Source: Escherichia phage vB_EcoM_SYGD1. From it: a DNA stretch of 64,000 bases. The notes below the pieces were generated by a model. That model ran no database searches. It had not been told where the DNA came from and saw only the letters and a program-made list of their open reading frames with translations. Both the position numbers and the translations under genes were made by a program. Positions 30,735-32,842 of this stretch are shown one piece after another. The DNA lies in the sequence record MW883059; one strand, written 5' to 3'. How positions within the stretch are numbered: the stretch's first letter is position 1; every line of letters begins with the position of its first letter.

Positions 30735-31561
<827 letters not shown>

Positions 31562-31580
31562 AATAACGCGTGGCGGAAAT

Positions 31581-31928
31581 ATGAATTTTAATTATTACCC
31601 TATTCTATTAGAAAAAGACACGAAACAGCCAAAGTGGCAGGGTCCTCAGTTTATTAAAGGTGTCTATCAATTAGTAGTTCCTAAAGACAAGATTTATAGC
31701 AGTTGTTTCACTGAATCCGCTTGCAGTATTTTCGGTAATAGTTCTCCGTATTGGAATTTTGACATAAAGCTGGATAGAAATATCGATATTTGGTTGAAAG
31801 CTATGGATATTGGTAATATCATGTTTGATGAGAATAATTATCATATTATTGGTCGCTTTTCCAAACGTGGTAAAGAATTATATTTCACACCTGAAATTGA
31901 GAGAAAATTTGATGCTAAACCGTATTGA
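31581..31928 (+). CDS. hypothetical protein 115 aa inserted between frd and td
   Basis: ORF with no motif I recognise; frd and td are adjacent in T4 as I recall. Confidence 0.45.
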   Translation: MNFNYYPILLEKDTKQPKWQGPQFIKGVYQLVVPKDKIYSSCFTESACSIFGNSSPYWNFDIKLDRNIDIWLKAMDIGNIMFDENNYHIIGRFSKRGKELYFTPEIERKFDAKPY

Positions 31929-31973
31929 TTATTTAGCTTCATAAAATGTATTATAATTTATATAAGGTACTAA

Positions 31974-32522
31974 ATGAAACAATACCAAGATTTAATTAAA
32001 GACATTTTTGAAAATGGCTATGAAACCGATGACCGAACAGGCACAGGAACAATTGCTTTATTCGGTACTAAATTACGCTGGGATTTAACTAAAGGTTTTC
32101 CTGCGGTAACAACTAAGAAGCTCGCCTGGAAAGCTTGCATTGCTGAGCTACTTTGGTTTTTATCAGGAAGCACAAATGTCAATGATTTACGATTAATTCA
32201 GCATGATTCGTTAATCCAAGGCAAAACAGTTTGGGATGAAAATTACGAAAATCAGGCAAAAGATTTAGGATACCATAGTGGTGAACTTGGCCCAATTTAT
32301 GGAAAACAGTGGCGCGATTTTGGCGGTGTAGATCAAATTGTAGAAGTTGTTAATCGTATTAAAACATTTCCCAACGATAGGCGTCAAATTGTGTCGGCAT
32401 GGAATCCAGCTGAACTTAAATATATGGCATTACCACCTTGTCATATGTTCTATCAGTTTAATGTGCGTAATGGTTATCTTGATTTACAATGGTATCAACG
32501 CAGTGTAGATGTTTTCTTGGGT
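31974..32522 (+). CDS. td: thymidylate synthase, exon 1 (183 codons)
   Basis: Ends ...DLQWYQRSVDVFLG at the known T4 td 5' splice site; in-frame TAA begins the intron. Confidence 0.92.
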
Positions 32523-32842
32523 TAATTGAGGCCTAGGTATAAGGTGACTTATACTTGTAATCTATCTAAACGGGGGACCTCTCTAGTAGACAATCCCGTG
32601 CTAAATTGTAGGACTACCCTTTAATAATTTCATCAGGATTAGTTACTTACCGTGTAAAATCTGATAAATGGAATTGGTTCTACATAAATGCCTAACGACT
32701 ATCCCTTTGGGGAGTAGGGTCAAGTGACTCGAAACGATAGACAACTTGCTTTAACAAGTTGAAGATATAGTCTGATCTGCATGGTGACATGCAGCTGGAT
32801 ATAATTCCGGGGTAAGATTAACGACCTTATCTGAACATAATG
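32523..32842 (+). ncRNA. group I self-splicing intron in td, 320 nt, no endonuclease ORF
   Basis: Starts UAAUUGAGGCCU...GUAAUCUAUCUAAACGGGG, ends ...CUGAACAUAAUG as the T4 td intron; 3' half matches recalled T4 core; no internal ORF. Confidence 0.85.

Follow-up and report, generated by a model that had tools for sequence, protein, structure and literature searches.

Organization of the frd–td interval

In the window, i.e., the whole stretch of 64,000 nucleotides from Escherichia phage vB_EcoM_SYGD1 (MW883059) that was analyzed, the interval between frd and td is occupied by an ATG-initiated ORF of 348 nt, which is separated from the frd stop codon by 19 nt and from the td start codon by 45 nt (Table 1). 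Such an additional ORF with its own spacers had been reported by the first-pass annotation, and both the ORF listing and the sequence agree with it. The same annotation described frd and td as being directly adjacent in T4. This is indeed the case, as in NC_000866 there is nothing between the two genes, whose ends share 4 nt (ATGA). Each border of the interval in the window carries one copy of the 9-bp direct repeat TAAATGAAA, a common motif which is present in seven copies in the 64 kb. The ATG at 31558 inside the left copy opens only a mini-ORF of two codons (ATG AAA TAA) in the window. In T4 the same ATG in the frd stop region is the start codon of td, and in a further junction allele (allele B, see below) it is the start codon of a 68-aa ORF. 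No further copy (paralogue) of the 115-aa ORF was found elsewhere in the 64-kb window.

Table 1. Coordinates of genes, spacers and repeats around the frd–td interval of the window.
Feature	Position	Strand	Description
frd (dihydrofolate reductase)	30980..31561	+	193 aa; 95% identical to T4 frd; annotated frd in matching records
9-bp direct repeat TAAATGAAA, left copy	31555..31563	+	includes the frd stop TGA (31559-31561); from sequence and junction comparison
frd–ORF spacer	31564..31580	+	weak Shine-Dalgarno-like GGCGGA (31572-31577), 3 nt before the ORF ATG
115-aa ORF	31581..31928	+	PHROG 1928 member; RB32ORF229c of T2/T6; 13.7 kDa, pI 8.5
ORF–td spacer	31929..31973	+	td Shine-Dalgarno AAGG (31964-31967)
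9-bp direct repeat TAAATGAAA, right copy	31971..31979	+	includes the td start codon (31974)
td exon 1	31974..32522	+	183 codons; 96% aa identity to T4

As the spacer in front of the ORF is so short and no promoter-like site was found in it (consensus scan of the plus strand, none at 30990-31794), frd is its probable co-transcription partner, and both are probably carried on one mRNA. This spacer is conserved in T2 and in the Mosigvirus phage OLB35. The spacer upstream of td contains a sigma-70-like pair of hexamers (TTGATT at 31925-31930 and TATTAT at 31949-31954, 18 nt apart), whose nine of twelve consensus matches are weak evidence for a promoter, as well as a TATAAT at 31952-31957 and a MotA-box-like TTTAGCTTCA at 31932-31941. 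Together with these promoter-like elements it is conserved in T2 and T6. As the spacer holds the hexamers, the TATAAT, the MotA-box-like element and the AAGG, it appears possible that td possesses in ORF-bearing phages a promoter and a ribosome-binding site of its own, both of them absent in T4. RNA structure was not significant in either spacer (folding z-score of -1.8), and no terminator-like site was found in them.

Another small ORF of 81 aa (30735-30980, plus strand; RB32ORF231c, phrog_3183) abuts the start of frd. T2 and T6 also possess it, and T4 has a 71-bp gap instead. As both RB32ORF231c and the 115-aa ORF are absent from T4, this phage is devoid of small ORFs on both sides of frd.

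Evidence for a protein-coding gene

The first-pass annotation had raised the question of whether the ORF is translated. Its conservation in hundreds of genomes and an excess of synonymous over non-synonymous changes speak clearly for a coding sequence and against a chance frame. Between the window and T2 there are 14 synonymous and 2 non-synonymous changes, between T2 and T6 11 and 0. For pairs drawn from the window, T2, T6, AugustSocin and the Mosigvirus phage OLB35, dN/dS ranges from 0.03 to 0.09 for the ORF, from 0.04 to 0.085 for td exon 1 and from 0.05 to 0.15 for frd. The 115-aa ORF is a genuine, strongly constrained protein-coding gene. The weak Shine-Dalgarno sequence and the lack of a known domain might suggest that there is no functional gene here, but an intergenic spacer with a frame that is open by chance or in decay. 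However, the synonymous excess was observed in all pairs, the frame is intact across 30-100% identity in more than 580 records and the fold prediction is confident, which leaves this possibility with a practically negligible probability.

Distribution of the family

A tblastn search with the 115-aa protein yielded 584 phage records, 362 of them at ≥90% identity and 222 at <60%. The frd–td junction of the former 362 records, including T2 and T6, carries the same protein (≥90% identity), which is annotated as RB32ORF229c in T2 and T6. The window protein is 100% identical to a protein of Shigella phage ESh30 and 98% identical to those of T2 and T6. RB32ORF229c (PHROG 1928), which occurs in T2, T6, RB32, RB51 and other T4-like phages, is the same protein at the same frd–td position; no feature distinguishes it from the window copy, and the family has neither a Pfam entry nor a structure. 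In public protein collections the exact sequence is named "hypothetical protein" in every case. The term "unrecognised", which the first-pass annotation had used for the ORF, does consequently not apply, as the ORF is already known as an annotated hypothetical gene (RB32ORF229c, PHROG 1928) in about 360 Tequatrovirus records besides T2 and T6. RB32ORF229c is unmentioned in the literature found, and both the general searches and an accessory-gene screen preprint are silent on the frd–td junction locus.

At least six further genera of the Tevenvirinae have homologues with 30-45% identity immediately 3′ of frd, and often there are two paralogues in tandem. Among the phages with a homologue directly 3′ of frd are Jiaodavirus KPV15, Kanagawavirus CIP9 and 305, Moonvirus Merlin, Gelderlandvirus STML-198, Marfavirus EI and the unclassified Klebsiella phage Biddle_MM4. 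The frd–td interval of the Mosigvirus phage OLB35 holds a homologue as well, and on T4-like contigs from metagenomes the same interval is the site of even the most distant family members (P0041, P0043). In total, the position 3′ of frd and 5′ of td was found in the window and at least 15 other loci, and in several genera the gene overlaps with the frd stop codon and/or the next start codon. The divergence of the ORF scales with that of its neighbours, as exemplified by CIP9 and the window, whose aa identity amounts to 48% in frd, 44% in the ORF and 83% in td. Many outgroups contain a second ORF between copy 1 and td, a tandem paralogue of the same PHROG with an insertion of about 19 aa after the conserved Trp. 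In several outgroups (locus L015, CIP9, Biddle_MM4) a third ORF of 68-69 aa lies just before td.

Based on these comparisons, the 115-aa ORF is a long-standing resident of the frd–td interval and not a recent insertion. The first-pass annotation had seen it as an accessory insertion or cargo, an idea which does not fit with homologues filling the same interval across genera and with the abutting genes of T4 being the rare state (32 records). It had also considered a conserved homologue of known function at the same locus in reference T-even phages: locus and conservation were confirmed, the known function was not.

Two loci deviate from this arrangement. On the metagenomic contig SRR22022328_29912 (locus L021, 2501-2920), the distant member P0031 is preceded by a PnuC-like (NMN transporter) and a DksA/TraR-like zinc-finger gene in the place of frd. 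This contig stops 30 nt past the P0031 gene, so that the downstream context lies outside of it. In Klebsiella phage vB_Kpn_AM_K2 (L004) a homologue (P0011) is located inside a split "thyA". The ligase and thymidylate synthase genes are split in this record, and P0011 is a 195-aa chimera that ends in the C-terminal 45 residues of the family. The record most likely represents a frameshifted or misassembled genome and not a real fusion, and this hit was set aside.

Junction alleles and direction of change

Within Tequatrovirus-like phages three alleles of the junction were found. Allele A, with the 115-aa ORF between frd and td, is represented by 362 records, and allele B, with a 68-aa ORF (phrog_9550) at this place, by 137 records at ≥95% nucleotide identity. 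Allele C has no ORF and corresponds exactly to the T4 junction; it is represented by 32 records, roughly half of which are T4 isolates, and divergent versions of it occur in Dhakavirus MX01 and in JK45. The 68-aa ORF of allele B and the third ORF of the outgroups share 69-81% identity. It is found at positions 1779-1985 of locus L016 (fHoEco02), 4670-4879 of L015, 3173-3379 of L003 and 2648-2854 of L008. For a small orphan it is unusually well conserved, with 69-81% identity across genera whose frd is only about 48% identical to that of the window.

The T4 junction equals the window sequence minus one copy of TAAATGAAA and the 407 bp between the two copies, an exact match with a total difference of 416 bp. 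We infer that the T4 allele arose by a gene-precise deletion of these 416 bp between the two stop/start junction repeats. Taken alone, the TAAATGAAA repeat may also be compatible with an insertion accompanied by a target duplication. As the abutting state of T4 is rare (32 records) and homologues are present at the locus across genera, a loss in T4 appears most likely and not a gain in the window. As the T4 junction equals the window minus one repeat copy with the intervening sequence and the outgroups carry arrays, parsimony over the genera favours an ancestral array of frd–copy 1–copy 2–68-aa ORF–td and differential gene-precise losses at stop/start microhomologies. In Tequatrovirus, such losses would have left copy 1 alone in the majority of genomes (among them the window, T2 and T6), the 68-aa ORF alone in others and no ORF at all in T4. 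T4 is accordingly a poor reference for the frd–td junction, since it carries a minority deletion allele, and genes which seem "extra" in a comparison with T4 are ancestral in many cases.

Arbiol, Comeau and Krisch reportedly described in 2010 how small ORF cassettes are shuffled as modules in T4-type genomes. The frd–td junction resembles this shuffling in its gain and loss of whole genes at short conserved junctions with intact core flanks, the junction being here a TAAATGA stop/start overlap. It differs from it in that no promoter-stem-loop element is evident and that the repeats are 9-bp stop/start junctions.

The left border of the ORF is also a site of mosaicism. When Escherichia phage NHEP29 (L026) was compared with positions 31511-31690 of the window, identity rose from about 52% at the 3′ end of frd to 98% at the start of the ORF, a sharp mosaic breakpoint. 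OLB35 possesses a Tequatrovirus-like frd (87% nucleotide identity) beside the same ORF. Two deeply diverged classes of frd alleles (about 64% nucleotide identity) appear to have been exchanged around the junction. The idea of the ORF being an island of high similarity, which would imply mobility, was rejected, as its divergence is close to that of td despite the breakpoint in NHEP29. For the same reason the swapped module may be frd and not the ORF.

Conserved residues, predicted fold and possible function

The window protein matches PHROG 1928 with an E-value of 1.3e-35, its residues 4-111 being aligned to positions 2-125 of the 126-position profile. The tandem paralogue and the distant member L020 belong to the same PHROG. 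An HMM search of 1.84 billion representatives placed PHROG 1928 in about 40 clusters, all from T4-like phages. Its members are stand-alone proteins of 95-140 aa, except for one 37-aa fragment and two repeat-protein artefacts. The latter two (P0035, P0044) gave long HMM matches and were considered as fusions, but turned out to be Ig-repeat and YadA repeat artefacts. Neither the single protein nor a 40-member profile had a match in Pfam, NCBIfam or the PDB (E < 0.1 cut-off for PDB sequences), and no family of the PADLOC defence set was hit at E ≤ 10. This is in agreement with the first-pass annotation, which had noticed no nuclease motif or other signature. An alignment of 40 sequences exhibits W19, G91, K95 and G97 as invariant columns and Q16, G27, Y29, F93 and F102 as near-invariant ones, and does not contain any conserved acidic, His or Cys set that could be catalytic or metal-binding.

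An AlphaFold2 model based on this alignment reached a pLDDT of 91.6 and a pTM of 0.84. It consists of strands 6-12, 27-34 and 62-64, a helix (68-76), a strand (80-82) and a hairpin (86-96/99-104), which may correspond to a barrel with an OB-like strand order (b1-b2-b3-helix-b4-b5). With the better model, about 20 of the top 60 structure matches were OB-fold nucleic-acid binders (HIN, Cdc13, Teb1, RecO, Rrp40 and further S1 domains, SSB, RPA32), aligned over 60-70 residues, which is a lead and not a demonstration. OB-fold domains for single-stranded nucleic acid (SSB, RPA, S1, cold-shock, HIN) were among the known systems considered for comparison. Matches in BFVD were confined to uncharacterised proteins from T4-like phages. 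PHROG 1928 combines a confident predicted fold with the lack of a solved relative, its gene has its place between those for two successive enzymes of thymidylate synthesis, and it belongs to a large set of conserved, constrained T-even genes.

In T4, frd and td are early/middle genes. The ORF would be co-expressed with them as a pre-replicative protein, its product being a non-catalytic, mildly basic 13.7-kDa single-domain beta-barrel of OB-like type. The conserved residues would be located on the ligand-binding elements of an OB-fold, with Q16, K18 and W19 in the b1-b2 loop, Y29 in b2 and F93, K95 and G97 in the b4-b5 hairpin. Such a protein might act without any catalysis, its ligand being single-stranded nucleic acid or another protein, for instance Frd or Td. 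This OB-like mode of binding, which is derived from the predicted model, is a tentative and rather doubtful part of the explanation. The identity of the gene and its evolutionary history, on the other hand, are held with high confidence. An ancestral PHROG 1928 gene coding for an OB-like non-catalytic binder is, taken as a whole, the best explanation and a reasonably, if modestly, probable one. As T4 lacks the ORF, it is dispensable in the laboratory. The natural null alleles of T4 and its close relatives make this otherwise ordinary annotated hypothetical protein an easy target for knockout and complementation.

Alternative functions

Apart from a binder of the above kind, a host-directed or counter-defence function appears conceivable, albeit rather unlikely. 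The protein would inhibit a defence or host protein of some strains only, which would explain the presence/absence polymorphism. Three alleles segregating within Tequatrovirus, the mosaic region with the NHEP29 breakpoint at the frd/ORF border and a dS between the window and OLB35 that is lower for the ORF (0.71) than for td (1.9), hinting at exchange between lineages, are in line with this idea, as is the protein being small, early-expressed and free of enzyme motifs. Many small T-even early proteins are variably present. Rapid evolution and changes of locus are usual for counter-defence genes. The ORF, however, is under strong purifying selection and its locus is fixed across genera; moreover, it had no PADLOC match, and the paper on the accessory-gene screen does not refer to it. 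Somewhat less probable still is an adaptor which docks on Frd and/or Td and couples these two consecutive folate-cycle enzymes, as a non-covalent equivalent of the junction region in bifunctional DHFR-TS. The family is located in the frd–td interval at every complete locus examined, including those of P0041 and P0043, its ends frequently overlap with frd and td at stop/start codons, and it is constrained by purifying selection to the same degree as td. Yet T4, the main model for Frd and Td, works without this protein, no fusion to DHFR or TS was found among 1.84 billion proteins, and Frd and Td are 95-96% identical between phages with and without the ORF. A more far-reaching version, which we regard as speculative and quite improbable, would be a structurally novel class of small OB-like factors dedicated to the DHFR-TS step in T4-like phages. 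Its members would either bridge Frd and Td, as a non-covalent equivalent of the DHFR-TS junction, or bind the frd-td mRNA and thereby set the Frd:Td translation ratio, and T4 would have replaced this role by direct translational coupling (ATGA overlap) after the loss of the gene.

BASEL records label the ORF as "putative homing endonuclease". A homing endonuclease or other self-mobile cargo at the junction could account for presence and absence with sharp borders and for the flanking 9-bp repeat, and the neighbourhood is rich in such genes (I-TevI in td, mobE near nrdA in T4). The ORF shares with the Seg (GIY-YIG) and Mob (HNH) enzymes of T4 and with I-TevI the variable presence between conserved nucleotide-metabolism genes and, through BASEL, the label. 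Unlike them it is locus-fixed over many genera and lacks any nuclease motif: no GIY-YIG, HNH, LAGLIDADG, His-Cys box, PD-(D/E)XK or EDxHD domain or motif was found in the protein or in 40 family members, and no nuclease family was matched in Pfam, NCBIfam or the PDB by the protein or its 40 relatives. The invariant residues W, G, K and G do not include a conserved catalytic set of His, Cys, Asp or Glu. With 115 aa the protein is also smaller than I-TevI (738-nt CDS, about 245 aa) and MobE (426-nt CDS, about 141 aa) of the T4 frd-nrdB region. Its divergence is proportional across the genera, and its presence does not depend on the td intron (see below). The BASEL paper names comparative genomics as the route to its "putative homing endonuclease" labels and gives no biochemical evidence. 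A self-mobile element is thus very improbable.

State of the td intron

The presence of the ORF is independent of the state of the td intron. Among phages with allele A, T2 has no td intron, T6 has one with I-TevI, and the window has one without the I-TevI ORF. Introns with I-TevI are also present in T4 (allele C) and in fHoEco02 (allele B). Hitch-hiking of the ORF by co-conversion with the td intron or I-TevI was therefore rejected as a rule, as the junction alleles and the intron states are found in every combination.

The group I intron of the window (32523-32842; Rfam RF00028, 70.3 bits) measures only about 320 nt. It has lost the I-TevI ORF by deletion, apart from the last approximately 20 codons (GLVTYRVKSDKWNWFYINA*) at about 32636-32695. 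In a spread sample of 40 rows, a contiguous intron without this ORF was seen in few records (U115, 100%; 101112UKE3-1, 97%), and most of the intron-bearing rows exhibited the I-TevI form of about 1.1 kb.
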